A stretch of DNA of 64,000 bases from Lingula anatina (lineage: Eukaryota; Animalia; Brachiopoda): contig CM120641.1 of the NCBI GenBank assembly GCA_051362555.1, positions 24,434,401 to 24,498,400 of the forward strand. Direction: 5' to 3'. The translations under genes and the position numbers were made by a program. Shown here piece by piece: positions 11,641-60,331 of this stretch. Below the pieces are notes generated by a model. The model saw nothing but the letters and a program-made list of their open reading frames with translations, was not told the origin of the DNA and did not search any database. Position 1 is the stretch's first letter. Each line of letters opens with the position of its first letter.

Positions 11641-14600
11641 TTATGTATAGTGGTAGCTGAGAATTGCATCATCATAACTTGGTGCCAGTGGCCTTTCATT
11701 ATGGCTAGATTGCATATGCATTGTCACTGGTCTTTGACAAACATCCATTCCTGGTAAATCCCGATGCACAACCTGGCGATAGCTTGGAAATGCAGTCTGC
11801 CTTTCATAGTCCACTTCATAAAAGGATGATTGGCATGTGCCAACATTAAGCAAAGCCACATTCTCCAACTGCCTCCATGTTTTGGGCTCAGTGCTGCTCT
11901 TTTTCAAAGGCACTTTGGACTCTCCAGAAAAGCCAGCTGATGACTTTGCCTCACTAGCAAACTCAGACAATTTTTCCTGGCCTGCAATCCCACATGAATT
12001 TGGTTGCTGAGTTAAACATTTGGTAGACGTGACGACAGTTTGTATCTTCTGACCCTTTGGAGTAGGACTTTCACCACATTTCTTTCTATGTGGAACATCA
12101 GTACCCAAATATTTTTGTTCATCAGTGTTCCTATCTGATAACATACTGAACAGTTCATTCTCTCTTCCGAAGAAGCTCATTTGAGGATTTGGCGGCAAGC
12201 CCACGTCTTGTCCACAATAATCTATAATCATTTCTTCACTTTCAGAGCAAGATTGGAAAGGTTTTTTTCCCTGTTGTAATGTGGAAATGAATCTTTTCTC
12301 TGCCTTCCACTCTTTCTGATCACACTTACTTGAAGATAATTGCTTGTCATCATTTATGGCAGTTGACTCTTGGTTATTTTCACCTGGGAATTGTAATACA
12401 GTTGTAGTCACAGCATCATTTGGAATTTTAGACTTGGGATCCGACTTTGGTATTGCTTTTTTTCCAAGTAGAGCGTTCATTAGGAATTTCATCAGGTCAC
12501 TACCACTCCGTGGTTCTTTATCCGACTCTTTGTTTGACAGTGTTTCTGAATCAACCTTTCCACACTTGGCATCAGAAGTATTCACCTCATCGGAAAACAC
12601 CTCAGATTTCTTGGGATAATTTGGAGGGATCCATTTCTCTCTCTGGGGATATACTTCAGCTCTAGGATCTGCCAGTTTACACTCCCCTTTTGCTTTCAGT
12701 GGAATGTACCTTGGAGGGACCTCCTTGCCCCTCAGCAGCGTGCGTCCATGGAACTGACCAGCAGTCTCTGGTGCTGTTCTCCGCACTGCTGTGCCCTCCT
12801 TTTCTTTCAAATTGCCAATTTGTAAACTGGGATTCACACCACTGGTTGTGCAACTTTTCTTACTGAATAATCTGCTGGGATTTTTATCCTCCTGTTGGTT
12901 GCCACCATTTCCAAGGACAGGGGAACCTATCTGGTGAAGATTAGATTGATTATCATAACCTAAACTGACAGATTCTGAGCCCGAGATTTCCATATCCACC
13001 ACCTCCAAATTTGTATTGTCCCCAGTGTGGGCCTCTTCTTGCATGCCCTCCTGGAGACTTGAAAGCAGGATATTGATGGTCGTTTGTATGGCAGCTAGAT
13101 CTGCCTCAGACTTTGCATTTTTCTTTTGTTCAAGCAGCAGACCTATTGTAGACTCTGATCCTCCATAATTTACCTCACAAGCATTAGGTTTGACTGTGCT
13201 TTCAGGATTAGAAATTTGCCCCCATGCCACATTTCTAGGGTCTGTATGATGAACAATGGTTTCATGATTAAAAATTTGCTCAGGCACTTCATATCTTGGA
13301 GCTGTCATCTTTCTTGGCCCCCCACTGAGTTGGTCACTGCATCCTGGAGGTTTTCTTAATCCCCCATACTGACCCATCAAAGAGCTTTGTGATGGACCAG
13401 CTCTTGGAGAAGGTGGCATACGCAGGCCTGAATGTTTTCCAGCATGCTCCAGCATCACCAAGCTGTCATCAGATTTGTTGTTTACAAGGGGTGGAGTGTG
13501 CAGTCCAGGATAGTTTCTTCTTTCAGGTGCTTCCAAATCTTTCTGCGACCTCTCCAATTTGCTTGTAGGTGGTGTACAATATGCTGAATATTGCCTGCTG
13601 GTTTCTGCCATTGGAACATGTTTAGGCTTTGAAGGTGTCTGCAATCCATGATTCACAATTATCTCTGGTTCCTTTGGGAACTTTGTAACCAGGCATCTTT
13701 CAGATGTATCAGGTGGGGTATGTCGACTAGTAGGAGGGTGGTACATATTGGATGTCCAGTCGAAATTTTTAACAGGCGGTTCCTCAAAATCCCTTCTTTG
13801 TTCTGCCATGTATGTTGATGGTGATGGAGCTGTTGGACCCTTTGACCTCAACTCTAAATCAGTCTGGCCCTGGCTTGACATATGCCCATTGCTGGATACA
13901 GAACGAATATGAAGAGGCTTTCGATCAAATCTTGTATTGCTTGTATACAGACTCATCTCCCATTCAAACATCTGGTCCTCCTCTGCTTTCAAAGCCTCCT
14001 GATGCGACCTGGAAAACACATCCACTGTTTGGCTTCTACATCTGGACTTCTTTCTTCTTTTAGTAAAACCGGTACCTTGGTTTTGTCCACAAGTCTGGTG
14101 CAGTGACTTACCATGTGTGTCTCCAAGTTCTTTACCTTGCCTGTCAGAAAAAAGATGCCTAGATACACCAACTTTATGGGCAAGATTCTGACCTTCCTGG
14201 TCCACAGGTTTTGCCATTTTCAGACATTCTGCATATGGTTGTTTTTTACCTTGAACTGATCCAATTGTCCCTTTGACATCCTTTATTCCATCCTTTGAAT
14301 GGCCAGGTACTACATCTTTACTATCTTTGGAATGTATTTGTGCAGAAACTTGATCAGGGAGTGAAATATTTGGCAAATTTTGGGCTGATTGGACATCCAC
14401 AGCACCTTTTTTATCCACATTATGAAAATTTTGTGTGTCTGCCTGTTTTAATGAAGTACCTGTGTCATAAAATACATCTTCATTCTTGTTTATCCTCTGC
14501 ACTTTATTCTTTCTTTGCTCTAAAGTATTTTCTGGGTGAAGTTTAGCTACCTTGGCTGGTAAAAGGCCACTTGTGTCCCCAAATTTCTTGTTCAGAGAAG

Positions 14601-15925
14601 CTAGAAAAGCTGCATTGCTTTCAGCCTCTTCACATTCCTGGTGAACAGTAGCAAAACGCTCAGATAATGATCGAAACATCTTTCTTTTAATCCCAGTATT
14701 TGGCACATTTGGTAGCTTTTGACAGGGACTGGTATTCATACTGTTGTTGTTCACTTCTGAAGGCTGCTCTTCACTTATTTCTTTTTTTCTCATTTCTTCA
14801 ATTTCTGTTGTACTGCTGACCAAATTGCTGTTCTGCTCGGCATCCCTTTTAGACTTCCTCCTCCTCCTTTTCTTTTTCTCTGATTTTACACTTGATTCAT
14901 TTGCATTTGCATTTTGATCTTTATTCTTTTGTTTCTTTTTTGAAATCTTTGACTTGACTACTTCGTAGAAATGAGATAATTCTACGAAATGAGATAATTC
15001 CCTGCCATTTTCCTCTTGGGTTTTCTTGTGACTTTCACTAACCTCATTGCTGATACTCAACTTCTGCTCAGCTACAACATTCGTCTTCTTCTTCCACACA
15101 CATCTGCTTGTATCTGAAAACTCTTTTTTCACAAGGTCTGCCTTTTTTGTATTAACTTTTTCTATGATTCTCCTCCCAAATCTACTTAACTGGTCAGTTT
15201 CTTCAGATCCTTGTCTTTTATGTTTATTGCCAGGCATTTTCTTGTTGAATGGTAAACTGTTATCCCAGCTGCGGCTTCTTTGCAAGGTAGCCTTGGCTGC
15301 TTCTGTTTTGCTGGACTGCCAGAATTCCACAAGTGCTACTGGAACACAATGGCTGGGACAGCTTGAAAAACCTTTTTGCTCGCAAAACTCATAAAGGTAA
15401 ATCTGGAATAAAAGAGACAGTCATATGTGTAAGAAAAGGCAAATGTTTTATGCATTTAAACTCACTACAGGAATAAATTCACAACTCTTGACAGATTTTT
15501 CTACCACTAACAATTAAGAAAATCAAATTTGTTATAAAGTAGAGCAACCTGAAATGAAATATTTGTTGGTAAAAAATAAGCTGCCACACCAGGCTGACTG
15601 TTTAAAAATAGGGGCCATTATACAGAATGTCAATCACTGAATGAAGTTTAAATAAAAACTTGATGAAATATAATCAAATGAAATAATGAATAAAATCTCA
15701 CCCTGGATTTATTCACAGCATCCTGAAGCCTATCATTGCAGGAAGGTTTGATTTTAGGGATGTGACTGTGATACCCCAAGGTTGGTTGAACTAAGTCCAG
15801 AGACGTCCATCCTGGATTTACATCAACATACTTTGCCCTACCTAACATTATCTGAAATTTAGAGGAAACAATTGCATAAATTACAGTTTCCATATAATTG
15901 TTTTAGTAAGAATACTGAGACAAGC

Positions 15926-26000: not shown

Positions 26001-26792
26001 AGACTTCAATATCTGTAACACAGACAAAGAAGGATAAAGCAAAATAATATGACTGATTAACTACCTAGTTAAGTAAGTTAGGCAATGTGCAACTCTTCTT
26101 AGTTTGCTTTTGTTTTGATCGCTTAATGATTTTTTTAAAACTCAAAGACATTTGTACATATTCTATTTGCAAAAATTAAGCATTTTCAAAAAACAAAAAA
26201 GGGGGGAGGGGGCAAAACATGTATTTCAACTATTTATACAAAATTACCATATATCTTCAAGTATCATTTTCAACTGTGTATTGTGATGTTACAAAGGTTG
26301 ATTTATTTGTTCAGAACTTAAAGGTTTATCAAGGCGACAGACCCTACTTGACCTGTGTTCAAGTCAAGTCAGGTACTTTCCCCAAAAAGTAACACTATGG
26401 TTGGTTTATCAACTTAGGAGGCAATTTTATTGAATTCGTTTCAAACTTGACAGATTTCAAGCGGTTTAATTTATTCTTTTCTTTCTTTCTTTTTTATTTA
26501 TTTTGCGTTATGGTAGACTAGTGTGGTATTATGGAGTTGTTTTCTGTGGTTTTTAGGTCTATTAACCAGATTGATTAAATAATCACATTGACACAAGGCA
26601 CAAGTGGCCTGACCTCACAAAGTAGCAGTGCTTTTCTGTAATGTGAAGCATTTTACTATTTTTCTACAATGAGCCTGGAATCTCTGAATGAACGCAATAG
26701 TCATTTTACTCTATGACGGTTACCTCTTTCTGCGTCGATTCGGGAGAAACTCCAAGAACCCCATACAAATCTAACTTCAAAACGTCTGCCAT
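20019..26792 (-). CDS. DNAJC17: DnaJ homolog subfamily C member 17 (J domain + coiled coil + RRM-like domain)
   Basis: Exons (minus): 26792-26724, 26012-25943, 25697-25639, 25359-25272, 24302-24226, 23644-23548, 23160-23123, 22743-22666, 22027-21947, 21661-21542, 20267(or 20144)-20019. Translation: [15 protein letters not shown]...[43 protein letters not shown]...[13 protein letters not shown]...PKLKVKWKSKK...GSAIVEF...AVQNEVG...[19 protein letters not shown]. Colinear with human DNAJC17 as recalled; HPD motif intact. Confidence 0.93.
20375..21271. mobile_element. Probable Helentron-associated (HINE-like) non-autonomous repeat(s) with internal ~158-bp tandem units
   Basis: Two copies of AAAACAGCATAACTTTTG.AAAAATGG..CAATCA.GCTGATTT (about 20476 and 20635), TTTGACCTTGA...GGTCAAAGGTCA motifs (about 20874-20902) and a terminal hairpin TAGTACAGCCAGC...GCTGGTGGTACTA (about 21237-21268). 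Family assignment is inference. Confidence 0.45.
22349..22604. mobile_element. MITE family B (opposite orientation to the 5115 copy)
   Basis: Starts GACTGGGTTCCCAT, the reverse complement of the 5322 end, and ends CTGGGAATGGTCTC; TAC duplicated on both sides. Confidence 0.65.
24708..25190. mobile_element. GC-rich ~480-bp TIR element (MITE) in a DNAJC17 intron
   Basis: Left GGGGCCCGCACACGGTGAGCATTTGGCGCGCGCC versus the reverse complement of the right end GCACCCCGCACACGGTAAGCAATTGGTGCACGCC; AT-rich flanks (TAAA/TTAA). Confidence 0.7.
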
Positions 26793-27290
26793 CTCTCCAT
26801 GTGAAATATAGATTAAACCTTCCTCCTAAAACCGAAGAGCTGTGCATTTTTCCTGACTCCTTTACTAAAGATCTTTATTTATTAGACGGGAAATCACCCG
26901 GGGATGTCCAGGTTTGGCGATAAAAGATCGATGTCATTGTCGTTTTGATTGAAATTAGATTACGGGCTACTGCAATCGAAACTGCAGGGCCTTTTATTGA
27001 GAAGTGTCTGTGAGTCACAAAAACAACAAAGTCAAATGTGAATCTTTTCTTGAGACGTACTAGTATCTGTGAGTCACAAAAAAAGTCAAACATGAATCAT
27101 AATTTATTTCAGAAGACCTGAATACGCCTTGACAATTTAATTATGAATTAAAATTTTGACCACAACTTACATTTTGTATTTCTATCGCCCAGCAAGCTTT
27201 TAGTATTTATTTTTATTGCTATTGCTTAGGTTTAAACATGAATAAAGTGGAGTCGCATACGCACTGGAAACTGTGAAGTTAAAAAGGTAA
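26793..27290. promoter_or_regulatory. Probable bidirectional promoter between DNAJC17 and the Bak-Roc-COR-caspase gene
   Basis: Head-to-head arrangement and locally more CpG. TGAGTCA at 27011-27017 and 27070-27076 inside a duplicated block. Candidate 5'UTR-exon donor AAG|GTAATT at 27287. Confidence 0.55.
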
Positions 27291-28698: not shown

Positions 28699-29384
28699 AT
28701 GTCAGGTAGACCAGAGACACTGTCTCAGGACAGGGTGAGGAGTGTCAGTGAGAGTGCTGCACAGTCCCAAAGGAATCGGAACAACTCCGAGACACATCCA
28801 GGTAACTTGTAAGATTCTGCTTATGCTGGGCTTGACCCCAACTGGAAAATGTTTTTTTTGGCTACGCATGCCATCAGTCACAAGGAATCATCCTGGGGTT
28901 GTAAGGTGGTGTCCAAGTAATCTGCGATTGTCTCCCTAGCTATTTCTCTTGCCCACTATCCACCATAATATTGGTTTTGTGAGTATATAGAACTGTTGAT
29001 ATTAATAGAAACTATAAATGTGGTCAATTCATGTGTAGTCAGTAACTTATTTGTTTAACTATAATTGAACTTCACAATTTGATATAGTTCAACTTTAGTC
29101 AGATTTTTAAAGTTCTCTTTTTTTAAACCATTTATTTATTTATTTATTTATTTTAAGGCTCTGGGCGAGCTCGCAGCAAAACAGAATTGGATGCGAGCAC
29201 CAGAACAGAGGCAGTAGAAAATGAAGTGGTGAGAGAAGACATTCATGCTGTTTTTGACTACTTGGTCAGTGATTGGTTAAAAAATGACTTTGCAGAGAAA
29301 GATGACATTCCTTTAGGACTGAGAAGTTTATGGAATGCTGATAGACACACACTGAGGTGATATAAATAGTGCCGTGGTCTTGGT

Positions 29385-29422
<38 letters not shown>

Positions 29423-32400
29423 GTGTGTATTTAAGTAAGTTTTTTTTTTCAAAATAAGATGTGGTTATTTGTTATGTTAGCCTCTTTACTAAACTATTAC
29501 TAATCAATATTGTTCAATAATGAGAAAACTGATTATCTGAAGAATGGAAGAATAACTGTTATATAATGTCAGTGGCTCTAAAGATGTTTCTTGGTGATTT
29601 ACTTTTTCAGACCATGTGTTGAAAGTTTGGCCTTTGAACTTAAGCATGTAGTAGATGGTATTAAAGACCCTGGTGTTTTTGATGATGCTGTTGGAAAAAC
29701 ATTATTACCACGGTAATGTTTTCAAATTTTTGATTGTATTTTTATGGAAATGATAGAAAGTTCATGGTACTAGTATTTTCATGATGTAAATCATATAGCC
29801 TGAAATATAATGTATTTACTCCTTTCAAACAGTGAGACAGTCCATGACAAATAAGAAAGTATTTGGTTTTAAATTTTCAGAGATATGAAAGATATGATAG
29901 CCTACGAGTTGACTTTACATGCCTGATTTTATGATTATAATATTGATATTCCAGTTGGACTTTAAAAAGTATTGGTGATTCATGCAGGGCTGGTTATATC
30001 TGTCAGCGATTGTGAAATCATTCCTTTTGCTCCTTGTAAAAGGAGTTTCAAAACTTAAGATACTTACCATTCATATTCCAAATTGATATATTTTTCAGGG
30101 GCACTGTGTCAGATTTTAAACCCATTCCTGTCAAATATGAAAATTTTGCATCTCTTGCAAGAGAGACTGTGTAAGTAAAATGTGTGTTATTTTTTCCTTG
30201 TAATTAGTTTTCATACTCCAGTTTTTTGTGGTTTAATGTCATTGTGGAAAAGGCTGAAATATATAGTGAATAATTATAACACTAAAATACATATGTACGG
30301 CAAGTAGACTATTTTTAATGTTTAGCCCCATTCACTAGCCTTTGGATTAGTAAAAGCCTTTAACTTTCAGCCAACTGGTCACTTAGGCTTCATTCACATG
30401 CAATGTCTATTTTCTAAATTCTATTTTCTATTTGCGGTATGTCTTATGATCACGGTCTGTGCCCTGAATATCCCGCGGCGTAATTACTGGCAGCGCGAGC
30501 CAGTTCCTATAAGTTACTATAAGTAACTGGCTTGCTCTGCCAGTAATTACGCGGCGGGATATTCAGGGCACAGACCGTGATCATAAGATAGCGCGAATAG
30601 AAAATAGATTTTTAGAAAATAGACATTCCATGTGAACGAAGCCTTAAACTAGTATTAGACTGATAAATGCAGCCCTTATTACAAACCACAAGAAAAGTAA
30701 AATCCAATTGCGTAGATTTCTTGTTGTGTTGTACTGTTAAATTTTCCCTCTCTTTTTCTTTTTTTTTTTTTTTTTTTAATTTCTTGTTAACAATTTCAGG
30801 ATGTATGGAGATGCAGTAAACCTAGGACGAATAGCTGCTTTGATGTTCTTCAGCTATAGGCTTGTCTTGAAGGCAGGTTCAGATATTCATAGTGACATTA
30901 GGAATCATTTAGGACAATTCTTCCAGGAAGAAAACCTTTTCAGATGGATCAATGACCCAAAGAGGTGCTTTTTTTGTTTGTTCATTTGTTTATGTATGTA
31001 TGTATGTATGGTATGTATGTATGGTATGTATGTATGTATGTATTTGTTCATTTATGAGGCAAAGTTTTCATATGTATGTCATACAACTTGTATTCCAAAA
31101 CTAAGTTACTTAATGCTCAAGTAAAGAAGATTATTACACCAAACAGTTACAGCCTGATATGAGTTTATATAACCATTGAATAGTTGATTAAAAGATAGAA
31201 CAGTTTTACAACTTTCATTATGTCTAATCATGTTAATTCAAATTGTTATGTTTAACAATAAGGTGTAAGATACTGCTGTGTGATTTAAAAAGTTTTCTAT
31301 TATTTTTATGAATTAATTAATTTTGAACTTCGAAAGATGTTGGAATGGGCCATAATCTTGATATCATAAATATATAATACTTTTTCTTTCAATGAATTAT
31401 TTAGTTTTGAGTTTGAGAAGATGTTGGACAGGCCAGATTATCTCCAGGTGTACAAGAAGGCCTGTGCAGAAGGGACGAGAAAAGTGTATCGCCTCAGAGT
31501 GATGATAGTAGGACAGCATGGAGTAGGGAAAACCAGCCTGAGAAAGAGGCTCCTGGACGAAGGGTTCTCTGAGGAATACAAAATCACAGATGGGATAGAT
31601 GTTGATCCATCTGAGTGTGTGGTGGATGTGAAGAATTCTTCAGTGTGGCTAACTTCTGCTAAAGGTATTGATGTATAACTAAAGCAGACTTAATGTAAAA
31701 AAAACTTTCATAAGAAATTGTGTGGAATATTTTAAATACATGTATTTGAAGTTGAAAATTGAATCCAGAATTTTTTATGAAAATTTTCAAAAATTTTGAC
31801 CATTGTTGATGATGTTGAAAAGTATCTGAGATCATCTCAGACCCAACATACACATATTCCTGTATCCATGACCATTGCTTGTCACAAATTATTTTTTGAC
31901 AGTATTACTAGTTAACTTAATTACAGACATGGGGGAAAAGTTCAGAGCCAAAGCCACTCACTCAGGCTTTCAAAGTTTTCAATATTGCTAGGCCAGATGA
32001 ACAAACTTTGGTCTAAATGTTTTTTGATTGAGAATTACTTACTGCATACCATCAGGTGGGTGGTCTGTTGGTATGCACCAACAGTTCTAAAGACATTTTA
32101 TTGTTCTGTCTGACCCTAACAAGAAGAATTTTTTCCAGGATATAAACCTGAAGTTGATGAGGAAGATCCTAAAGAAATTTATGAAAAGGCCATTGCCAAG
32201 GTTCTTCTTGAGCATTATCAAGAAGGGACACCTGGTGAGAGAAAGAATTATTTATATCATCATTATTTGTATTTCGTGTTTATTTGTATCACCCAGCCAA
32301 GTTTTTGTTACATAAGAAGAGTGTGTATCCATTTTGCAATATTTGATACAGCTCAGATAATTTATTTGATAACTAAGTAGACCAATGTTGTTTCGTATAT

Positions 32401-35400
32401 GGTTTTTGTTCTGCTCTTGTATTGTTCCAACATGTCTTTAGAAGCCATGTATTAAAATTGTAAGTGTTCATTGCAGTTGATGTGCCCCAGATGATTCCCA
32501 GCAGTACCTCCTCTGAGGAAGATGTTATGCCAGACAAGCTCAGTAAAGGTTCGTGAGGCCATATTTCACATCAAGAAGTACACTTAACTGGCCCACTTAG
32601 TGAGATTGACAAATTAATAGCCTGGTCCCAAAGTGAATGTTTTGTTTCAAACAGTTATACTATACCAATGTAATGAGAAAATTAAACCTAATACTAGAAA
32701 TGGAGATCAAAATGTTTGGACCTTATCTGAAGGCCCTTTTCATTTGGAGTTGTCACCAGGGTCACCATATCTGTGGGACAGGGCCCTGGGAGACATCCCG
32801 TGCAAACTGTCATTACGTGACACCATGACAAATCCAAATTAGTCTCATTATTTTAGTAATGCCCTGACCATTACATAAGAGGGTCATTTAAATGAAGTCC
32901 CCACTCTCAGCACGTCCAATTAATTTACTTAACAGCAGGTATCAAACTTGTGAAGGACTTGTTAAAGAGAGAAAATACCCTCTAATGTTTTGTGACGTGA
33001 AGTGTGAGATATTTTTTTTCATAATTAACATAATTTTCTCAATTAAAAATTTTTGTTTGTTTGTTTGTTTTTGGCTTCTTAAAGAAAATTCATTGTCTTT
33101 GAAAGTGCAATTCCTTATCTTTTTAGTCAACACACAAATGGTCAAACTTTCTTTAGTGAACATTTTTAATATTTTGGCTATGGAAGAAATGTCATGTCCA
33201 TATTATATTCATCATTTTACGTATTGGCTTCTTGTGATTTGGATGATAATAAATCTGCATTTAATTCACTTTTGCCCTGACCAACAGATGAAAATGGTGC
33301 TACAAATACAGAAGAACCTTTTGGGCATACTAGTACACACATCACTGCTGGAGGGGAAGAAGAAACACCACCTTCTATAACAGCACCAACTGGAAAGCAA
33401 GCTGATGTCAAAGAAAAAAATTACAAGGGTTCAGACAGTGATCTCCATTCTCAACGAAATGGGAAAGATACTGTGGATTTCTTGCAGATTCCTGCCAACC
33501 TGCCACAAGATATCAAAGCCAAGGTATCAGAGCTGAAACTGAAGATGGAGGAGAAGTTGAGGCTCCATAGAAAGGGTGAGTGAATACTCTGTCTGTGCTC
33601 CTCTCAGGGTAAAATGTGGGAGGAATTCATGTCTTTCCTTTTTGTTCCATTTTTTAAAATTTTATTCCTTTATTATCCCTGCACTCTTCTGACAAAAGCC
33701 ATTTATTCTCTTTGTCCATGCAATGAAGGACAGTCCTATAATCCGTTTACAGCTTATTTTTATATGGAAGCAATATAACCAATATACTAAAAATAGGATC
33801 AAACATTCTAATTTACAGCATATAATGTAGCAGATTCAAATTGTCTATCAAAATTGTCCTTTTTTTTTTGTAAATTCATTCATTTAATTATGCCAAAAAC
33901 AGTTAAAGTACTGACTGTAACAGGGTTTGAACTATAATTCTACTTCTTGTTCTTTTTTATAGCTTTCTGATGCAATATTGTTAAAGTGGCAATTCATTGG
34001 CATTTAATTTATTGCCTTCGTGCTACTTTTTCTCTTAAGACTCTTTCAAAATATCTTTTTGCTGCCTCCTACAATAAAAATTACCTGTGATTGAGAAGGT
34101 ATTTTACATGTAATATAGATATCAATGATAGTGTCATTGGGTGTAATACTATACCAAAACACATGTAGAACAGATTAGACTTATATGTCACTTTATATGT
34201 GTTCAAAGTGTGGGCATTGGAGACAGTTACTATTAAATCCTGACAAGTAGATTTCAGGAAAAAAATCTATTGTCATACATACACTGTACAGTATGTCCTT
34301 ATATCCTCTTCTGGATGTTACAACACATGTAGATAAAAACATATACAAGTTGGTAGAAAAAAGAGGATACTGAATTACACTAAGGGTAAATAGGGACATT
34401 TTCATCCAAAGTCTTGTAAAATCAAATGAGATTTATAGGGACTTGCAGGAGAGTGGGCTCAGAAATAATGGTAGATGGTCATAAGCAGTGGCAGCAATGA
34501 ATAAAAGCCGACAGCATATTCATCCAGGGATATTTTTCTGCTCATTTTCTCTTAAGTTCTGTCAATTTACAGACTATAACAAAACAGTACAAATTTACTA
34601 TGGTCTGGGTGTCACCTTTGTATCACTTTCTGAGAAGACATTCCTGGCACATAGAGTTTCACCTTCGCGGCTTTAATGTTGACCTCAACTTATGAAGATT
34701 CTTGCATGTTTTCTTGTCTCATGTGATATCACACATTGCCAAAGACCTCAAAGCTATCTTGGTTGATTCCCATATTCCATTACAAACAGGGTATTTCATA
34801 CACATTCAGCACTGGTACTGTACAAGATTTAACAGCATACATATTTTGCACTATTTTATTGTTAGAGAAGGGGAACATAGGTATGTTAGTTATTACTGAA
34901 GAACCAACCCCTCAGTATAATTTATACACTTATGAGAGTAAAAATAATTATTTTCCTAAATACTTGAGGAAATATAAAGAATGAGGAAATATAAAGAATG
35001 ATGTGAATAAATAGCTGGATTCCACACTTCACCCAACTGAAGAAAGAAGCAGTGCAAAAGTGTCAGTGGGGATTGTACCTGCAATAATGATGATAATCGC
35101 TTCAAAATTATCGTTATTAATAACACATTTAAGGTTTACAAGTGATCTGTTAGCACAACTTATAAGGTTGTGGAGGGTAGAAATACAACAATTAGTGACA
35201 TGAATCACACTGGTACATGTATTATGGTATTATGCATCTGCACAGGTTTATCCACGCATTTTAAGAATCTTTGAAACAAAATGCCTACAACCCCACTGTT
35301 ATGAATCATTCACTCACTCTTCCATTATTCACCAATAAATTGCTGGAGCCCTTGCACAAATTTTCACAAACTTTGAATAAAACCAACTTTTTTTCTAAAG

Positions 35401-38400
35401 TTTTTGTGAAAACTGTTCTAATGGTGCTTATTGGTCCATCTGTAACATTTTAAATATTTTTTTTACAGGTTCCACAGATGAAATTGACAGCAGTTCACTA
35501 GATGAGCCAAAATTAAAACTTTCTTTTTGGGACTTTGGTGGCCAGCATGTCTTTTATACAACACATCAGACATTCCTGACCAGCAGAGCCATCTACTTAC
35601 TGGTGATGGACCTGAACAAGGACATGTATGCAGCAGTGCAGACCTTTCGCCAAGGGAGAACAGAGAGGGTGGTTGACCTTATTGCACCAAAAACAGGCAT
35701 AGGTGGGTGTCCTAACTGTCAGTTATAAGACCATTATCCCCTCTTTATCTCTTAAGAGATTGTTACAAAAAAAAACTTTTTAGAACAAAAACAGGGACTA
35801 ACTTTGTAGAAATGGATTCATTAAGCATTGGTAAGTATGGGAAAATTGGCATTTACCGCAGGAAAATTCATTTTTTGGCCAAAGTGAACAGTTGTTATCC
35901 TTTTAACTCTGGTAAATGAATCCGTTCCAACACTCAAAGTTATTCTGCTTTTTTTTTCCTCTGAAAAGTTTTTCTTTTATAACAATCTCCTTAGAGATTA
36001 TTACAGAAGGTCACCACAGATAACAGGAAAATTGTGATAACTGCCATTTTTGGTGGTGAAATAGAAATAATTATATTTCATTTCAATGTATTTATTGTGA
36101 AGTATAGCTCATACGAAAAGTTGTTTTCCTTTTACTCCATATGGTGATTAGTGTTGTTAGTGCATTTGTAATTAAGGATGGACGTCTTGCGTGGTAATTG
36201 CAGTACGTAAGACAACGCCAAGTGTCTTGTTGTTTTCAATTTACATTCTTGGTTTGTCTTTAATTAATACTGTGATTAGTGTTGCTAGTGTATTTGTAAT
36301 AAAGGATGGAGATCGTGTGTGGTAATTGCTGTAAGACTACACCAAGTTTTATGTCAATTTATTTTTGGATTGCATATAAGTAGCTTAGTTATCTGCTTGC
36401 AACGTGTGTAATTATAGTATTGAATAATTAAGTGTGATGATGTAAATTTTTTTTATTCTCACCAAGGATGTTATGTTTTTTGCCTTTGTTGGTTTGTTAA
36501 CAGCCTCAGAAAATCAATAAAATTTTCAGGATGGGTCAGATATGGGCTTACTAATAAATTAATATATTTTTGTGGTGATCCATCTTTAATTAATAAATTA
36601 ATAATAATGATGAAAATTTAGATGCGTTGGCTTAGGTGTATGCTGTTGCTTTACTAGTTTTACTCTGTTTCACTATAATGCTCTTTTAAAAAGGTTCTTT
36701 TGCTTTGATACTCATATATGTTTCTTTGAAAATCATTTCTAGACTACTTAGATTACTGGCTGAACTCTATTCACACCCATGCTGTGGACCTGAGGACATC
36801 CACCAATAGTCTGCTCAGTCCCCCTGTCATCATCGTCTGCACCCACAAGGACCAGGTAGACCAGGTAAGAGTACGTCATGGTTGACTGCACCAGGCCTGA
36901 TTTGACTAGAATAAGAAGGTTGAATCTTTCAGTGGATATACCAGTATATCAATGTGATGGATTTTTAAATTTTAGAGTATTTTGTAAAAGAAGTCTGCTT
37001 TAATGGTTTAACCAGTTGAGATAGAGTAACTGTTAAAAATGGTTGGGTTTTCCAGAGGAGATGTGGACATATCTTGATTTCCTATAAACTTGCATGATAC
37101 CTAACAAGAGTATTAATGTAATGATTTCAGCCCAGTCCTCAAAAACCAGTAGAAAGATCTTTCATATTTTTGGACTGACTTACATATTCTTTTTCACAAA
37201 AATGAACCTGTTATGGCCATGGCAAATTATTAATTTTTCACATAGTTTATGTAACATGGCAACATGTAATATGAGAAGGTTTGATTAAATGTTTTTAAAA
37301 TTCTTATAGATTTTTGTGAGCAGTCTTCCCTGGTACAAGAGGTACTATGCCAGATATTCAGGCAAAGCATATTACAGTGAAGACCCAGAGTCTGTCTCTG
37401 ATACAGTGAAGTCCTTTTTTAAAGCCATCACAGAGCACTTGGAAGGCAAAGTCTACAATAGCCATGTTTATCACAGGTATTTCGCAATTGACAACAAAAA
37501 CACAGGGGATCCAGCATTGGAGCAACTTCGGCAGACGATTTTTCAGCTAGCACAGCAACAGCAACACTGGGGTGAAGATGTTCCAATCAAATGGTTGAAT
37601 TTGGAGCGACAGCTGCGAGAGATCAAGCAGTCCTCCATGGCAGACGGCAATTTTCTTCCTTTGCAAGAGGTCATTGTTCATGGAAGCTCTGTTGGAATGA
37701 CAGAGGAAGAGGTGATTGCATGTTTGGTATTTTACCACGAAGTTGGCGAAATGGTATTTTTCAACGAAGATCACTTGAGGGAAATTGTCATCCTTGATCC
37801 ACAATGGCTCATTGATGCCTTTAAAAGCATCATCACACTGAAGGAGTTCCACAAAGAAGTCCATGGGAAAAATGGGATCAGCAGAACATACTGGGAGATA
37901 CTGGACAGAAGAGGGATTTTACACGAAGAGCTGGTGGACATGATATGGGAGGAGGAGGACAGGCTGATCAGGTACAAGATTGTCATCCTGCAGTTAATGC
38001 AAAGCTTTGATCTCATTTGTCCACTCAAGAGGGACTTCAGGGAGAACCCACGGGTGTATCAGCCTACCAAGTCTAACCAAGCAGATGAAACAGACCTTGC
38101 ATCTTCCTCACAGACATTTTTTGTGCCATGTTTATTGTCAACTCCATCTGCCAGTGACATCATTCCGGACAAATCCAGGGATGTGTCAGCTCTGTACTTC
38201 AGGTTCTCCTTCTTGCCAAATGGTCTGTTTTATCGTCTAGTTGCATGTGCTGCACAATTCCCAGGTTGGCATGTCTACGGCAAGATGCTGTTTCATGGTT
38301 ACGTCCGCTTTGAGGTAGATGAGGAAAACAAAATGTACATACTGGTCCTGACAAAAGAGGACGACACCATTGCATTCAAGATGCACCTGTTGATGGCTGA

Positions 38401-41400
38401 CCTCCCTGGGTCTCTGACCCATGAGCTGTGTAGGCAGACATGTAGTGACCTGGTGAAGATGCTGAATGGTGAGATAAGAAAGTATTGTCCCCGAGTGACC
38501 TATGACCTCTGTGTGAAGTGTAACTGTGAGGGAGCAGAAGAGAGTACCCTGGAACCCATAGGGTACAATGGACAGAAGATTGTGTCAGGGATCCCAATGC
38601 TTTGCCATGATCACCATCAGGCCATCAGAACCACAGGGTACAGGCCCTGGTTTGTGGAATGGGTAAGAATTGTCTTTCTTAATTTTCTTTATTTCTTATC
38701 CCTTACGAAAAAGTCCTATAGGATCCTATAAGATTTGTGTTTCAAAATCATTCCATTTCTGATAAACCAAATCATTAAATTTTTAATCTTTGTGAAGTAT
38801 TAAAACTAAAGATCTTTTTAAAATTTATTTCCACATGTAAGGGAATATATCACCATTACTGGCATATTTTATAAATGGGTTTATATTTTATGTGACAATC
38901 ATCCAGTACATTAATTGTACAATACATTTTTTTTTGCTAGAAAGAAGAAGATTTGCCAAAACCTCAGACATTCGCAGGAGCACAAGATATCCCAGTCCTT
39001 GGTGAGTTGAAGCGACCTAAATAGTCTTTAAGTTTTTCACACCAAACCGTAGTTTGCAGTATCACTGAAACAGAGCCTCATATTCATCATGGCCAGTTGA
39101 CTGGATTAATTTCTATTGGTACATATATTAAAATCATTTCTGAAATAGGCCTAAAATGGAGAAAGGTTTAACAAGCAAGTGAAATGAGAAAGTAAATTTT
39201 CCTTAGTGGTTGTTTACTCTGTCTGAGGACTAAAATAATTATCACAAATAATTAGTGTTGTTAGTCTAGCTTTTTATTGCTACAGAGTGCTGTATTGCAC
39301 ATATCAAAAAAAGAGAAAATATTTTTATATGATTCTTCCACAGAAACTCTGATGATTTCTTTTTTTTTTTTTTTGTTTTTTGGTTACAGAAGAAAGTCTG
39401 CCAACAGAAAATGAAGAAGAGTTTGTGGATGAAGTCATAGTAAAACCCTGCTTGGACAATTTCTACGATATTTATTCAAATGACTTGAAAGAGGTGAAGT
39501 TAAGAGAGTGTATTATATCTCAGTTAAATGTTTGTATTAATTTTGTACAATTGAAGACATTTAAATAATTTTATACAAATGATATTTCTTAGATATGTTT
39601 ACGCAGCAAGTAAATTAAAAAAAAGATAACACTTATATAATTCACGATAAGTTTCTGTGATATCTAAAATCGGTGAAAATCATAGTTAATTTTTCTATTA
39701 TTTTTTGTGAACGATACTACAGGAAATATTTAAGAACAATTATTACTCTTATTTAAACTGTTGAGTGAGTAAACAATCAATAACTGGGTGATTAACACAG
39801 CACATGAAATTCTTATTGAAATATGTTTCAATATTGCCAAATATTTCATATGTAATTTATGTTAGCGTAATAAAAATTTCTGTACAATTTTTATTAGTAA
39901 TACCTAATATCATACAACCACAACTTCTGCTTTATTTAAGGTATACAAAAATACCTCCACACCAAGAGGACGCTCACTCATAATCAATAACCGCACATTC
40001 AACTGTGACACACCCAAACTGGCCAATCGTCATGGCACGGAGCTTGATGTGGACAAGATGGAGGAGCTCCTTCATCAGCTTGGCTATAGGGTGTCAGTGC
40101 ATCATGATCTCACTGCAAAGGTAGTAATGATGCTTTGATGTACAGGATTGTTTGTTGGTTCTTTTTATTTATCCTTCCTTAATTAAAGTTTTCAAAATAA
40201 TAATTAGGATAAAATTAGGAAATAAATAAAAATGAAGAAATAGTGAAATTGTACAGTTGTACGATATCTGATAGAGCTTTCTTGTAGCAAAAGGAGTAGT
40301 GACGGACAGGATTATTTGTTTAATCATCAACATATATACCTAGCAGGCAATTGGCGATGATTTTTTAAACTAAAATGAATGATGGTCTTTAAGGTATTTT
40401 TTGCTTAATTGACAATGCACATAATGCAATGGTTTATTTACTGAAAATTGTTTGTTGAAATGTGTGTATATAATTTATAGAGGACCTATAGGTATTTGAG
40501 TGTTTGTGTACGGTTGCTTGTATGCGTGCTTGCATATAAACAAATGGTCACTTATGCACATTTAGAACACATTGGCTAGTTCTATTCATTCAAAATGTAC
40601 AAACAAAATGCACAAATGAAAAGATGATAACTAATCAATATTATTCATGAAAGAGCAACAAAATACATTTGTCTGCACTTTAAAATACTTAATTCCACCG
40701 TGCTATATAAATATGCATATTTTTATCTACTGATTCCATCATATATTATTTATATATTTAATTTTCTAGGGAATGTCTGATCTGCTTAAAGAAGAAAGTG
40801 AGAGACCAGATCACCAAAAATATGATTCTTTCATACTTGTTATACTGAGTCATGGAGCAAGGGGGGCTGTCTATGGCACGGATGGCTTTGTGATATCATA
40901 CGAACAAATTACAGAATATTTCAATAACGCCAGCTGTCCTGCTCTGCGGAGTAAACCAAAGATGATATTCATTCAGGCATGTCAAGGAAGTGAGTAACTC
41001 TCATTATGCATAATTTTCTTTTTACACTTTTCGCTTTCTATTGCAGAGACAGCAACACTTTATTCAAGTGCATTGTTATTTAATTGGTTCATTTGGGTCA
41101 AATTTGACTAAAATTTTGGTCTTAAATTTTTAACCAACTTTTGATCTGAATTCCCTATATATGAACTAGACTCTGACTTTTTATCTCATTTGCAGATGCC
41201 AGGGATCATGGTGCTGGCCATGTGCCATTACCAGACCCTGTCAAGATGTTACCTAGCAACCAAAACACAACCCATGATGCACCAGAAGATGAAGGAGAGA
41301 TAGTCCCCACAATGGCAGACTTCCTGGTGGCAAAAGCCACTACACCTGGTGAGAAAGTGAAAAAATCTACTGCTTATTTCAGTCATAAAAATATTTGATA

Positions 41401-42220
41401 AGTGTACAGCAACACTGTTTGTATATAATTTTTACAGACATCTGTCTGGTTAAAAAAAACTATATATACATGTATTATACTAGTATATTATAAGAGAAAC
41501 ATGAAAATGAATAGACCAGAAGAGGATACTCTGCATGAATTACAAGTACTCTAGATTTCTTTTTAATTAAATGCTTTTATCCAAAGCTTTTTTTTTGTGA
41601 ATTTCTAGACTTTGTGTCTTGGCGAAACAAAGAGAAAGGCACTTGGTTCATCCAGTCCATTGTGACAGTATTCTGCAGATATGCATGGAAAGAGGATGTG
41701 CTCTCCATGTTCTCAAAGGTGTGTTTTACATTCACAACTAAGTTAAACTAAGAACTGGGTGACAGAGGTGAGCATGGAGTAAAGATCGAAGCCCAAGTTG
41801 TGTAGCACAAGCTCGACCACACATACTGTAATGCATAGTTTTTGACCAATCAGAGCAAAGGAAACATTTTTAATCACAGAACAAACAATATGGCAGATTG
41901 CAACGATGTTGTAATATTTGATGTTATCTTGGAAGACATTGATGTTCATGTTATAAGTTATATGATAAAACAATTATTGACTTTTGCTTTAATGGAATAA
42001 GTTGTTTGGCCAGTGGTCACCCTGTGGTCATGTTGGATAACTTGACAACACTGCACATGAGTCTCAGCTGTAAGATGTCTTTGGATAAATTTTATCATTA
42101 ATTTTTTTTTTTTAGGTGAATGCCCTTGTGGCAAAGTCAAAAACATCCGGAGGAATGAAGCAAGTGTCCCAAACTGAGTCAACTCTGTTGAAGAAAATCT
42201 ATTTCTTCCCAGGGAAGTAG
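28699..42220 (+). CDS. Bak-like Bcl-2 domain - Roc GTPase - COR - caspase fusion protein (ROCO family), 1332 aa
   Basis: 19 GT-AG exons, all phase-compatible with no internal stop: 28699-28801, 29158-29356, 29611-29712, 30099-30170, 30800-30964, 31405-31664, 32139-32234, 32477-32548, 33288-33575, 35469-35702, 36743-36864, 37310-38662, 38941-39001, 39390-39493, 39941-40120, 40770-40989, 41196-41348, 41609-41718, 42116-42220 (TAG); total 3999 nt. Motifs: BH3-like LAFELKHVVDGI, BH1 NLGRIAAL, P-loop GQHGVGKTS, WDFGGQ, THKD, COR WGEDVPIKW / ILDPQWLIDAF / LPNGLFYRL, caspase LSHG, [16 protein letters not shown]. Confidence 0.88.
29385..29418. repeat. (CT)n microsatellite
   Basis: Perfect CT run in intron 2 of the fusion gene. 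Confidence 0.95.
30386..30643. mobile_element. PIF/Harbinger MITE family A copy in intron 4 of the fusion gene
   Basis: GGCTTCATTCACATG...CATGTGAACGAAGCC with TTA at 30383-30385 and 30644-30646; nearly identical to 10296-10562 in the opposite orientation. Confidence 0.92.
35755..35990. mobile_element. MITE family E
   Basis: Ends AGAGATTGTTACAAAA...TTTTATAACAATCTCC with TTA on both sides; a truncated homologue lies at about 59764-59922. Confidence 0.7.
36145..36350. repeat. Diverged direct duplication (two ~80-bp copies about 128 bp apart)
   Basis: GTGATTAGTGTTG.TAGTG.ATTTGTAAT.AAGGATGGA...GTGGTAATTGC occurs at about 36145 and 36273. Confidence 0.8.
36455..36660. mobile_element. Degenerate HINE/Helentron-like short repeat
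   Basis: Pattern TCACCAAGGATGTTATGTTTT...GTTTGTT...AAATTTT...TGGTGATCC...TTGGCTTAGGT...CTAGTT resembles the CCGCCAAGGAGGTTATG...CTTGGCGGAGGT...CTAGTT layout of such elements. From memory only. Confidence 0.4.
39941..42220 (+). other. Caspase (peptidase C14A) p20+p10 domain of the fusion gene (exons 15-19)
   Basis: YKNTSTPRGRSLIINN, NRHGTELD, ILVILSHG (His codon 40851-40853), CPALRSKPKMIFIQACQG (Cys codon 40980-40982), [44 protein letters not shown]. Confidence 0.95.
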
Positions 42221-58893: not shown

Positions 58894-59304
58894 GCTGCTG
58901 GGTATTTGAAGAATACATGTAAGTGGGTAAATACTCTTGATAGAGGAGGCCTATTTCACATATCAGATGAGTTATTTCTGTTTTTAAGATTGCTTGAGGA
59001 GATTGTTAGCAAACAATTCTCGACACCAATCCTCATTCACTACCATCATGGCAATTTAACTTCTCCAATTTGGGATTCTGCTCTGAAAAATTCTTTACTT
59101 CTTTCTTACTGGGAGAAATTGACAACAGGTGCAACAACCAAGGTAAAAATGGACCTTATGTACATGTTCATACGTCTTTATATTACCATTAGAGGGAACT
59201 CTTTTCGAAGAAAACTCTTGGAAAAGTACCAACAGATCACAAAAACTACTCTGAAAGAAAAGGGGCTAAGAAAATCTCTTAAGAATAAATCATCTTCAAA
59301 ATGA
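58894..59304 (+). pseudogene. 5'-truncated second (convergent) ORF of the P-like element
   Basis: KWVNTLDRGGLFHISDELFLF...IRGNSF...KGLRKSLK. The W..(D)RGGL motif is associated with P/THAP9-type elements. The frame opens at an internal TIR fragment and has no obvious own start. Confidence 0.55.
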
Positions 59305-59763
59305 GTCAAATTTGGAACATTAAGTATTTGTGAAGTGATGTGAACAGTATATATACGTCAAATGTAGAAAGTTATATTTTAGTGCATTTTAAGAGATTAC
59401 TTGGTAGTAGAATATTACTGTTTGTATCCGAGGTGGAAATTATTTAGGGCGTGTTAAGTAGATGATTTGTTAGTAAATAGTTACTGTATCTTGTAAAGGA
59501 AATTCTTTAGCACTCTTTTTACACTCAACTCAGATTTGTGTAATTTGATAGATTGAATAGACATTGGGTTTGTTGCATTTTTCTGTTGCGTTGTACTGTC
59601 ATTTAACTGTCTAAGAGATCCAAATTTCACAATGAATGCATTGATCATAGAAATAAAATAAATGCTATTATACCACAACAACAGCGGTTAATCAAATTAT
59701 TCTGAAATCTATGCTTGCCATCACTTTGTGTGTTCTCCATAGATGTCTGCACTCTGTAATAAT

Positions 59764-59922
59764 CTCTTAAGAAAATACTACAAAAAGAAAACTTTTAGAA
59801 AAAAAATCAGGGACTAACTTTGAATGTCAGAATGAATTCACAAACCATTGGTTAGCACGGGTTAATTGTCCTTTACCCCAGGAAAAGCCATTTTTTGGCC
59901 AAAATGAACAGTTAATATCCCT
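59764..59922. repeat. Truncated MITE family E copy inside the P-like element
   Basis: CAGGGACTAACTTTG...CATTGGT...TTTACC.CAGGAAAA..CATTTTTTGGCCAAA.TGAACAGTT shared with about 35750-35900. Confidence 0.75.
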
Positions 59923-60331
59923 TGAAAGTTCTCTCTCCCCCTAAACACTAAGTGAAAAAAATCCAGATGTACAGTTCAAATAAGTTTATTAAACGAATTC
60001 ACTTGTTCATGCAATTCATCACTGTAATTTCCCAATAAGATGCAGCCTGTTAAATGTAACCTGTACACATTTACTTATCTAAGTTTATCAACAAATTGAA
60101 ACCCCAAAAAACTTCAAAACATTTCATTTATGATCAACAAAATTGTCACCACAACACCATTTATCTATTAATCATGGCTTATACAGTTAAAAAAAAAGAA
60201 CACTGATGCTAACTATTAAGTGCCAGCTGATGACACATGGGCTGATGTATGAATAACTAATACTAATACTAATAAAGTTACCTATCATTCTACAACATTC
60301 TATAATAATTGGTATCCCCCATTGAAAAGTG

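Follow-up and report, generated by a model that had tools for sequence, protein, structure and literature searches.

Proteins that combine a sensor, a Roc-COR switch and a caspase-like protease in one chain have been described in bacteria as LRR, AP-GTPase (Roc), COR and effector arrays (Kaur et al. 2021, eLife, PMC8195603), and the Runella Roc-COR-CHAT protease, which accompanies a bacterial gasdermin, has the same design (Johnson et al., bioRxiv 2021.06.07.447441). The protein predicted here, from a window of 64,000 nucleotides of Lingula anatina DNA, likewise has these three elements; however, the bacterial sensor is an LRR array, whereas the Lingula protein has no Pfam LRR match and carries a Bcl-2-type domain in that position, the bacterial protease is CHAT-type and that of Lingula an Asp-specific-type animal caspase, and the bacterial Roc lacks the long insert of the Lingula one (~47-50 vs 223 residues from P-loop to G3). 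In the annelid Owenia fusiformis, the ROC-prodomain caspase CAH1787638 has been described as species-specific, with a ROC pro-domain only and no function test (Horkan et al. 2024, GBE, PMC11463336); it has, as here, Roc-COR followed by a caspase (41% identity; same clade, SH-aLRT 100) but no Bcl-2 domain. The supplement of that paper leaves the pro-domain cell blank for the Bcl-2-bearing Owenia protein CAH1786849, and the Lingula accession is absent from it. The Roc-COR tandem with its G motifs is also common to animal Roco proteins (LRRK1/2, DAPK1) and to expanded Roc-COR families in molluscs, hemichordates and sponges, but the Lingula protein, unlike other animal Roco proteins, has no kinase, LRR or ankyrin repeats. 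By functional analogy only, it resembles CED-9/CED-4/CED-3 with EGL-1 of C. elegans, where BH3 binding is the trigger and a Bcl-2-family domain controls the NTPase by which a caspase is gathered. The C. elegans components are three separate proteins: CED-9 is anchored in a membrane, the STAND ATPase forms an apoptosome and the caspase is recruited through CARDs, whereas the Lingula protein would combine a BAK-derived domain and a Roco GTPase in one chain that has neither CARD nor anchor. The architecture had been put forward in an earlier note as one not known to have been described; its Roc-COR-caspase half is known (bacteria, PMC8195603; Owenia, PMC11463336), and for the Bak-derived sensor no description was found in the literature.

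The coding region (28699..42220, + strand; LOC106171421-type allele) was rebuilt by coordinate into 19 exons, namely exons 1-5 at 28699-28801, 29158-29356, 29611-29712, 30099-30170 and 30800-30964, exons 6-10 at 31405-31664, 32139-32234, 32477-32548, 33288-33575 and 35469-35702, exons 11-15 at 36743-36864, 37310-38662, 38941-39001, 39390-39493 and 39941-40120, and exons 16-19 at 40770-40989, 41196-41348, 41609-41718 and 42116-42220. All 18 introns were GT-AG, and the stop-free frame of 3999 nt encoded 1332 aa plus a stop, as previously claimed; the claim was also borne out by RefSeq XP_013407220/221 of L. anatina (1332 aa), identical to the spliced protein at 1321 of 1332 positions with 11 substitutions. 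These entries and CAH1786849, the full-length proteins, are predicted models.

Stranded RNA runs of the same species revealed transcription of the gene from the + strand, and at least 10 of the 18 introns were spliced exactly where predicted among the junctions listed. These were 1) 31664/32139, 32234/32477, 32548/33288, 33575/35469 and 35702/36743 on the Roc side, 2) the COR-to-linker joint 38662/38941 (19 reads, 4 runs) and the linker-to-caspase joint 39493/39941 (26 reads, 4 runs), and 3) 40120/40770, 40989/41196 and 41718/42116 inside the caspase part. The remaining eight (introns 1-5, 36864/37310, 39001/39390 and 41348/41609) had no read among those listed, so that, of the joints singled out earlier as critical, 38662/38941 and 39493/39941 were read-supported and 39001/39390 and the Bcl-2-to-Roc joint 30964/31405 were not. 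Because 4 and 2 further rows lie outside the two junction lists and joints at repeats masked beside exons 2 and 5 were dropped, these eight, 30964/31405 included, are unconfirmed rather than refuted. The gene is thus transcribed, and its spliced frame is predicted to encode a single protein with a tail-less Bak-derived domain, Roc-COR and an intact caspase.

Following a low-complexity N-terminal tail (aa 1-54, exon 1 and the start of exon 2, 28699..29216), which had no similarity to that of Owenia in a shuffle test (z = 0.9), the Bcl-2-type domain spans aa ~55-214 (exons 2-5, 29217..30964). Its own Pfam Bcl-2 score was below the cut-off (18.7-20.8 vs 31.4 bits), whereas the Owenia counterpart passed with 81.9 bits; the profile check therefore held for Owenia alone, and the Lingula part is assigned by homology to the Owenia domain (30% identity, z = 17.8 in 1000 shuffles; exons 2-4 alone, z = 5.3). 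The Owenia domain matched BAK structures best (87 bits, vs ~70 for BCL-2 and ~60 for Bcl-xL) over the whole soluble core, including all of the BAK-type BH3, BH1 and BH2 motifs, ending just before Roc, and a profile of the two sequences also had BAK as its top match (67 bits), although Lingula exon 5 alone scored higher with BAX (19.8 bits) than with BAK (15 bits). The Bak-like ancestry claimed before was thereby borne out, on the Owenia counterpart. Compared with human BAK, the domain is fused to Roc and lacks the helix-9 anchor, and in the Lingula copy BH3 and BH2 are eroded: BH1 is retained as NLGR (aa 166-169; NWGR in BAK), whereas the BH3 Gly-Asp and the BH2 Gly-Gly-Trp with ~12 residues after it are lost. 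Since both species retain the groove-side BH1 Gly-Arg but only Owenia the ligand-side BH3 Gly-Asp, the shared part is the receptor face.

No transmembrane helix was found in either protein: no 19-residue window exceeded a hydropathy of 1.4 (peaks 1.28 in Lingula and 1.39 in Owenia, neither at the Bcl-2/Roc junction). BAK lacking helix 9 is cytosolic, forms no oligomers and does not kill cells (PMC4840302). A pore role, and with it the membrane permeabilisation that the earlier note cites for Bak, is therefore unlikely. Read-through of intron 5, giving an isoform with a hydrophobic tail, was also considered and rejected, as the tail was a reading of a TATG microsatellite and the intron bin had no reads. 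A predicted model of the Lingula domain from the two-sequence alignment was all-helical but too poor for fold searches to be decisive either way (mean pLDDT 45.5); with it, VIA-align gave unrelated helical bundles (best Z 6.0) and Foldseek gave nothing at E <= 0.001 and three Bcl-2-family entries at E 6-9. An ESM Atlas search with Lingula aa 52-225 returned Bcl-2-type clusters at 0.76-0.77, taken as a lead only, and a predicted complex between the Bak-like domain and Roc-COR of Owenia, made with no alignments, scored 0.00 and counts neither way.

The Roc GTPase (aa ~215-650, exons 6-12, 31405..37546; Pfam Roc 62 bits vs a cut-off of 27) contained G1 GQHGVGKT (250-257), switch-I TDG (275-277), G3 DFGGQ (474), G4 THKD (564) and a G5-like AIDN (630), every G motif being also present in Owenia, and a long variable insert (aa ~331-464) between switch I and G3. 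Directly behind it lies the COR domain (aa ~651-1022, exon 12, 37547..38662), with Pfam COR-A at 61-65 bits, above the cut-off, and COR-B at 14.7 bits, below it. Searched by sequence among solved structures, exon 12 gave no match, but the predicted model of the Owenia paralogue matched LRRK1 and the C. tepidum Roc-COR at E ~2e-18, and LRRK2 too; ESM Atlas placed the Owenia protein with Roc-COR clusters at 0.75-0.81 (a lead only). The C. tepidum Roco dimerises in its nucleotide-free and GDP-bound forms, whereas with GTP it is monomeric (PMC5714945). Of the GTP-dependent dimerisation proposed before, the intact Roc-COR and G motifs stand, but the direction may by this precedent be the opposite one. 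The direction of nucleotide-controlled Roc-COR dimerisation differs among models.

An acidic linker (aa 1023-1077, exons 13-14, 38941..39493), with both flanking joints seen in RNA and no conservation with Owenia (z = 0.4 by shuffling), leads to the caspase (aa 1078-1332, exons 15-19, 39941..42220). Pfam Peptidase_C14 scored 203 bits, above the cut-off, and was covered over 1-233 of 233, so that p20 and p10 are both present. The catalytic dyad is His1165 in SHG (40851-40853, + strand) and Cys1208 in QACQG (40980-40982, + strand), and Arg1107, Gln1206 and Arg1267 are present, which we take to form the pocket for the P1 Asp; all of these residues are retained in Lingula and Owenia, whose caspase domains are 47% identical, and TTHD/A is a candidate inter-subunit cleavage site. 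Pfam found in neither protein the CARD or DED pro-domain of classical initiator caspases, in agreement with the earlier note, as were the four-domain layout, its Bcl-2 call resting on the Owenia homology, and the intact GTPase and caspase residues.

CAH1786849 is a colinear counterpart of the Lingula protein (40% identity over 95%), with Bcl-2, Roc, COR and caspase all above Pfam cut-offs. Since an annelid shares the layout, the comparison supports a real rather than a chance fusion. In a quick Roc-COR tree (34 rows, midpoint root) the two proteins grouped with SH-aLRT 100, and the Bcl-2-bearing copy branched first among four Owenia copies, an order that would fit an ancestral three-part gene. 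The other three have no Bcl-2 domain in their gene models, one having a Death domain at its end, and the module is therefore dispensable or swappable in that lineage. Word-seeded searches over proteins of ~730-2380 residues found the full layout in Lingula and Owenia only, with one Bcl-2-bearing copy each, and in none of the mollusc matches; lophotrochozoans in general therefore cannot rely on it in place of Apaf-1. A profile of the two Bcl-2 domains matched 2 of 112 fetched proteins, these two themselves. Related Roc-COR proteins carry Death, CARD, DED, TIR, HEPN, OTU or caspase modules, a sensor-switch-effector pattern. Independently derived pairings of Roc and caspase are found in a sponge and, as a truncated protein, in Mytilus; a single origin of all animal Roc-caspases was rejected, these two lying elsewhere in the tree with caspase parts 25-35% identical.

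By analogy with CED-9/CED-4/CED-3, the protein may be a BH3-sensing, self-activating initiator caspase with that logic in one chain, to which we give somewhat less than an even chance. The soluble Bak-like domain would be the receptor, its groove binding exposed BH3 helices of BH3-only proteins or of activated mitochondrial Bak/Bax; binding would cluster the protein or free Roc-COR from a restraint, and the nucleotide cycle of Roc-COR would set the balance of monomer and dimer, the dimer corresponding, if C. tepidum is a guide, to the nucleotide-free or GDP-bound form. The dimer would unite two caspase domains for proximity activation, and the activated caspases would first cut themselves after an Asp in the inter-subunit linker and go on to downstream targets. 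We suggest more tentatively still that it replaces the apoptosome with one chain and dates back at least to the brachiopod-annelid split: a BAK that lost its anchor would have become a Roco sensor wired to a caspase, and BH3 helices, e.g. on Bak/Bax pores, would trigger the caspase without Apaf-1 or cytochrome c. The protein had been thought to shortcut the Apaf-1 chain, which does not hold because Lingula and Owenia are tabulated without APAF-1, and Lingula also without caspase-2 (PMC11463336); it would rather stand in for Apaf-1.

It is rather unlikely, but worth weighing, that the same switch is an immune tripwire, the Bak-like domain serving as an integrated decoy to catch those pathogen proteins which bind Bcl-2-family members or mimic them, and the output being inflammatory or lytic death, not developmental apoptosis. 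The clade swaps and duplicates modules in the manner of immune receptors, a counter-invader role is predicted for the bacterial LRR-AP-GTPase-COR-effector proteins (PMC8195603), the Runella protease has been used to cleave a bacterial gasdermin (bioRxiv 2021.06.07.447441), the Owenia ROC-caspase belongs to the caspase-Y group with a proposed role in immunity (PMC11463336), and the sensor is the least conserved folded part (30% vs 47-48% identity), evolving faster than switch and protease. A single Bcl-2-bearing copy per species and a layout persistent since the brachiopod-annelid split argue against it. In keeping with the BH3-sensing reading, among 39 exonic variants, the best-supported ones of the RNA variant tables (94 and 132 further ones left out), the folded domains had 19 synonymous and 6 replacement changes and the insert plus linker 5 and 9 (chance expectation 21% synonymous), but the Bcl-2 domain had only 2 (1 synonymous, 1 replacement), with no demonstrable replacement excess. 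The eroded BH3 and BH2 and sub-threshold Pfam score in Lingula would also suit a working Roc-COR-caspase unit in which the Bak-like domain, instead of gating, is carried along in decay or acts as a passive localisation tag, as would the Owenia paralogue CAH1787638, complete without that domain, and the separately derived Roc-caspases of sponge and Mytilus; yet the frame is open across four exons with homology along the whole length in both phyla, the Owenia copy is BAK-like at 87 bits and BH1 Gly-Arg is kept in both species, and we consider this unlikely.

Still less probable is that the Bak-like domain is itself the effector or dimeriser, which once unlatched would form BH3-in-groove homodimers or, as in the membrane-sensing version of the earlier note, insert into the mitochondrial membrane, pulling caspases together or making a pore. 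The Owenia motifs are those of BAK, and helices 2-5 suffice as the minimal unit for BAK/BAX homo-oligomers (PMC4840302), but there is no transmembrane helix, BAK without helix 9 is inert, the BH3 Gly-Asp pair is missing from Lingula, neither species has a caspase-type site separating the domain from Roc, and the read-through that would give a hydrophobic tail has zero read depth. A tandem Bcl-2-like gene and Roc-COR-caspase gene joined by gene prediction only would agree with the absence of 30964/31405 and the four upstream joints from the listed RNA junctions and with both full-length proteins being predicted models. Horkan et al. say that odd caspases may be chimeric predictions (PMC11463336), but order and colinear junction sequence are common to two phyla, a stop is missing from exon 5 and a leader from exon 6, the intron bin between them (31005-31349) had zero depth in 4 of 4 runs, and the two exons had the same depth in 3 of 4 (in run X5, 1.6 for exon 5 vs 8.0 for exon 6); such a merge is highly improbable.

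The protein bears on the question of how animals without Apaf-1 couple Bcl-2-family decisions to caspases (PMC11463336): where Apaf-1 is reported to be missing, it may let Bcl-2-family signals activate a death protease. Although it is known from only two species and predicted from sequence and RNA, a one-chain apoptosome substitute would, if true, be a third Bcl-2-to-caspase link beside the mammalian and nematode ways, and would extend the bacterial sensor-Roc-COR-protease design to animals with a repurposed BAK as sensor. As the Bcl-2-type sensor, the NTPase switch and the caspase form a unit that can be expressed and mutated as a whole, the link is directly testable, and a protease output that requires dimerisation gives a clean read-out, relevant to LRRK2, of whether GTP makes or breaks Roc-COR dimers. 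Weighing against the BH3-sensing reading, CARD caspases and CRADD, which offer another route, are retained in both Lingula and Owenia (PMC11463336).

The gene at 28699-42220 (plus strand) is real and transcribed, and its unusual layout is common to a brachiopod and an early-branching annelid. Rebuilding by coordinate joined 19 exons across 18 GT-AG introns into 3999 nt, i.e., 1332 codons plus a stop, and thereby reproduced the single 1332-aa frame claimed in the earlier note. A search with exon 12 found the RefSeq Lingula anatina protein (XP_013407220/221, 1332 aa, labelled 'uncharacterized'), which differed from the rebuilt model at 11 of 1332 positions. Checking the spliced protein against Pfam bore out Peptidase_C14 (203 bits), Roc (62 bits) and COR-A (61 bits) but not Bcl-2, which scored 18.7 bits, under the cut-off of 31.4; no Pfam match to CARD, DED, LRR or kinase was found in the Lingula protein. 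The domain anatomy proposed in that note, including the absence of a CARD/DED prodomain, was correct: a Bcl-2-type domain (exons 2-5), Roc (exons 6-12), COR (exon 12), a linker (exons 13-14) and a caspase (exons 15-19).

Seven L. anatina RNA runs were aligned, and in the stranded runs among them every exon was transcribed from the plus strand. Ten of the 18 introns were seen in RNA reads at precisely the predicted sites, including joints inside Roc and inside the caspase. On the predicted passage from COR to caspase, the COR-to-linker joint (38662/38941, 19 reads) and the linker-to-caspase joint (39493/39941, 26 reads) were each found in 4 of 4 runs. The other eight introns (introns 1-5, 36864/37310, 39001/39390 and 41348/41609) were absent among the joints listed from RNA reads, a partial set that leaves out joints at the masked repeats flanking exons 2 and 5; for this reason, the Bcl-2-to-Roc joint (30964/31405) is unconfirmed, though indirectly favoured by read depth. 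The intron 5 bin (31005-31349, of which 31005-31056 is masked) had zero read depth in 4 of 4 runs, hence neither a 3′ end behind exon 5 nor a leader in front of exon 6 was indicated. Depths per base of exons 5 and 6, by rough arithmetic on bin means to which a repeat adjoining the exon-5 bin may contribute slightly, were 8.8/9.0, 3.6/3.6 and 4.6/4.6 in three runs and 1.6/8.0 in the fourth.

The Owenia fusiformis counterpart CAH1786849 (1362 aa) was 40% identical to the Lingula protein over 95% of its length, with Bcl-2 (81.9 bits), Roc, COR-A and caspase all above the Pfam cut-offs and in the same order. By domain, Roc-COR was 48% and the caspase 47% identical, against 30% for the Bcl-2 part. 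In comparisons with 1000 shuffles, the Bcl-2 parts were homologous by themselves (z = 17.8; exons 2-4 alone, z = 5.3; exon 5 alone, z = 13.5), and no homology between the two species was detected in the tail, insert and linker (z = 0.4-1.3).

Among solved structures, the N-terminal domain of the Owenia protein matched BAK best (87 bits), followed by BCL-2 (about 70) and Bcl-xL (about 60); its BH3, BH1 and BH2 all aligned with BAK, and the match stopped where the crystallised soluble core stops, a few residues ahead of Roc. The Lingula domain retained Gly168-Arg169 of BH1 and had lost the Gly-Asp pair of BH3 and the Gly-Gly-Trp of BH2 with about 12 following residues. With Lingula exon 5 alone, BAX ranked slightly over BAK, and with a profile of the two sequences BAK ranked first. 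A structural model of the Lingula domain was all-helical, with a mean pLDDT of 45.5, too low for a comparison of folds. No transmembrane-like stretch was found in the whole sequence of either protein. Judged by its sequence, the first domain is BAK-derived, yet it falls outside BAK membership, being without an anchor and, in Lingula, having eroded motifs. Another Bcl-2 domain in a multidomain immune-type protein, Saccoglossus GT4-GTase + TRADDN-DEDD2 + Bcl-2, was noticed in the portion consulted of the PMC8195603 supplement.

All G motifs of Roc were retained in Lingula and Owenia, split by a long variable insert, and the Lingula caspase had His1165, Cys1208 in QACQG and an Arg-Gln-Arg pocket, which we take to be its catalytic and pocket residues. 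A structural model of the Owenia paralogue CAH1787638, a Roc-COR-caspase protein without the Bcl-2 domain, had a mean pLDDT of 52 (289 residues at 70-90) and matched LRRK1, C. tepidum Roco and LRRK2 (E about 1e-18 to 1e-17) as well as caspases (E about 1e-6). By every sequence test run, the protein is both a Roco protein and a caspase. Among the best-supported 39 exonic variants listed, 19 synonymous and 6 replacement ones lay in the folded domains, and 5 synonymous and 9 replacement ones in the insert plus linker, the random expectation being 21% synonymous; only two were in the Bcl-2 part. It was also noticed that the P-loop-to-G3 insert is about 130-280 residues long in most of the fetched non-LRR animal Roc-COR proteins versus 45-75 in LRR-type ones, and that in the Lingula gene and its Owenia counterpart it contains Asp-Ser sites, which a caspase might cut as a possible feedback.

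A quick Roc-COR tree built from 34 fetched proteins, with two short rows excluded, a midpoint root and SH-aLRT as the sole support measure, united the Lingula protein with four from Owenia in one clade (support 100), in which the Bcl-2-bearing copy branched first among the Owenia proteins. This is most simply read as a single three-part gene in the ancestor, of which the Owenia duplicates dropped the Bcl-2 part or exchanged the caspase for a Death domain; alternatively, the missing N-termini could reflect truncated gene models. An Owenia Bcl-2-plus-P-loop query against proteins of 749-2384 aa matched those five clade proteins only, and a profile from the two Bcl-2 parts matched 2 of 112 fetched proteins; the searches were word-seeded and length-limited, and the species range is therefore a minimum. 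Owenia has no fewer than four members of this Roc-COR clade. One of them, P0010, carries a C-terminal Death domain in place of the caspase, and Roc-COR-Death is likewise the layout of P0011, the sister protein from Lingula; the output module is therefore exchangeable. Separately derived Roc plus caspase proteins (the P0044, P0045, P0106 and P0034 group) comprised a glass-sponge (Vazella) cluster and a further relative whose QACRG caspases are intact, together with a Mytilus model in which the caspase ends before the catalytic Cys.

As to function, we tentatively prefer a BH3-sensing, self-activating initiator caspase in one chain. The Bak-like domain would act as a BH3 receptor, since the groove side (BH1 Gly-Arg) is what both species retain. 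Initiator caspases activate when brought together, and Roc-COR would be the sole plausible dimeriser for the caspase domains. The C. tepidum Roco protein is described, in the part consulted of PMC5714945, as monomeric with GTP but dimeric with GDP or without nucleotide, versus the GTP-bound dimer of an older model (PMC4104024, in part); therefore, the sign of the switch may be either. Molluscs, annelids and brachiopods are reported to be without APAF-1, and Lingula without caspase-2 (PMC11463336, in part), from which the one-chain reading gains weight, and it loses weight because the range is narrow and both species keep CARD caspases and CRADD. That the gene product is a direct BH3-to-caspase switch is possible but somewhat doubtful.

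Bak-type membrane permeabilisation by this protein, in a pore role, is unlikely because BAK without helix 9 is cytosolic, forms no oligomers and does not kill (PMC4840302, in part), and neither species has a transmembrane-like stretch. The same two points weigh against the Bak-like domain as an effector, so that this reading, with its variant of the domain as dimeriser, is improbable. An immune decoy for pathogen proteins that target the Bcl-2 family is rather unlikely, the more serious of the rivals to BH3 sensing, and a mere passenger on Roc-COR-caspase, the layout that CAH1787638 has by itself, is distinctly unlikely. Least probable is an annotation merge of a Bcl-2-like gene with a Roc-COR-caspase gene at the unconfirmed joint, against which stand the empty intron 5 bin and the equal depth of exons 5 and 6 in three of four runs.

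A search of full-text literature, most subscription journals lying outside it, found no paper on a Bcl-2-Roc-COR-caspase protein; such a fusion was likewise absent from the parts covered of reviews of the Bcl-2 family (PMC8998228) and of coral apoptosis (PMC4715348), and caspases from the part covered of a Roco review (PMC6337361). The sensor-Roc-COR-protease design as such is already known from the bacterial LRR + AP-GTPase + COR + caspase proteins listed by Kaur et al. 2021 (PMC8195603, in part; Lingula accessions absent from the 12 of 13 supplement files searched). The label Roc-COR-CHAT is given to a Runella protease with which a bacterial gasdermin was cleaved (bioRxiv 2021.06.07.447441, in part), and Roco domains accompanied by TIR or Death domains are noted in Aplysia (PMC9334734, in part). 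In the portions consulted of Horkan et al. 2024 (PMC11463336), one Owenia ROC-prodomain caspase, CAH1787638, is called species-specific and placed among caspase-Y, CAH1786849 is listed with an empty pro-domain cell, and the Lingula accession and its first residues are absent from the supplement. What is new is a BAK-derived sensor on this design, in animals reported to be without Apaf-1.

Several minor features were also observed. RNA reads upstream of the start codon (about 26724-27230) included a GT-AG joint at ~26911/27230, and a splice acceptor lies 9 bases 5′ of the ATG, possibly marking untranslated 5′ exons, which would fit two RefSeq isoforms sharing one protein. In the acidic linker, run X5 had an additional acceptor lying 3 bases inside exon 13 (38941-38944; 3 reads), and its exon 14 lacked 3 bases, in frame, at 39413 in 5 of 8 reads. 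Read-through past the exon-5 donor (30965-31125) would give the Bcl-2 domain an anchor-like hydrophobic tail rich in Cys/Met/Tyr/Val; it was rejected as a membrane anchor, the tail being translated from a TATG microsatellite and the intron being empty of reads beyond the masked repeat. Multi-copy elements drawing reads from other loci lie in intron 4 (about 30380-30650, a long inverted repeat, MITE-like) and intron 10 (about 35760-36105). A 1259-codon open frame on the minus strand (11644-15420), with no Pfam match, is probably one large exon of an adjoining gene, and a transposase remnant at 58867-60661 contains a TNP-like RNase H C-terminal domain (60335-60661, minus strand).
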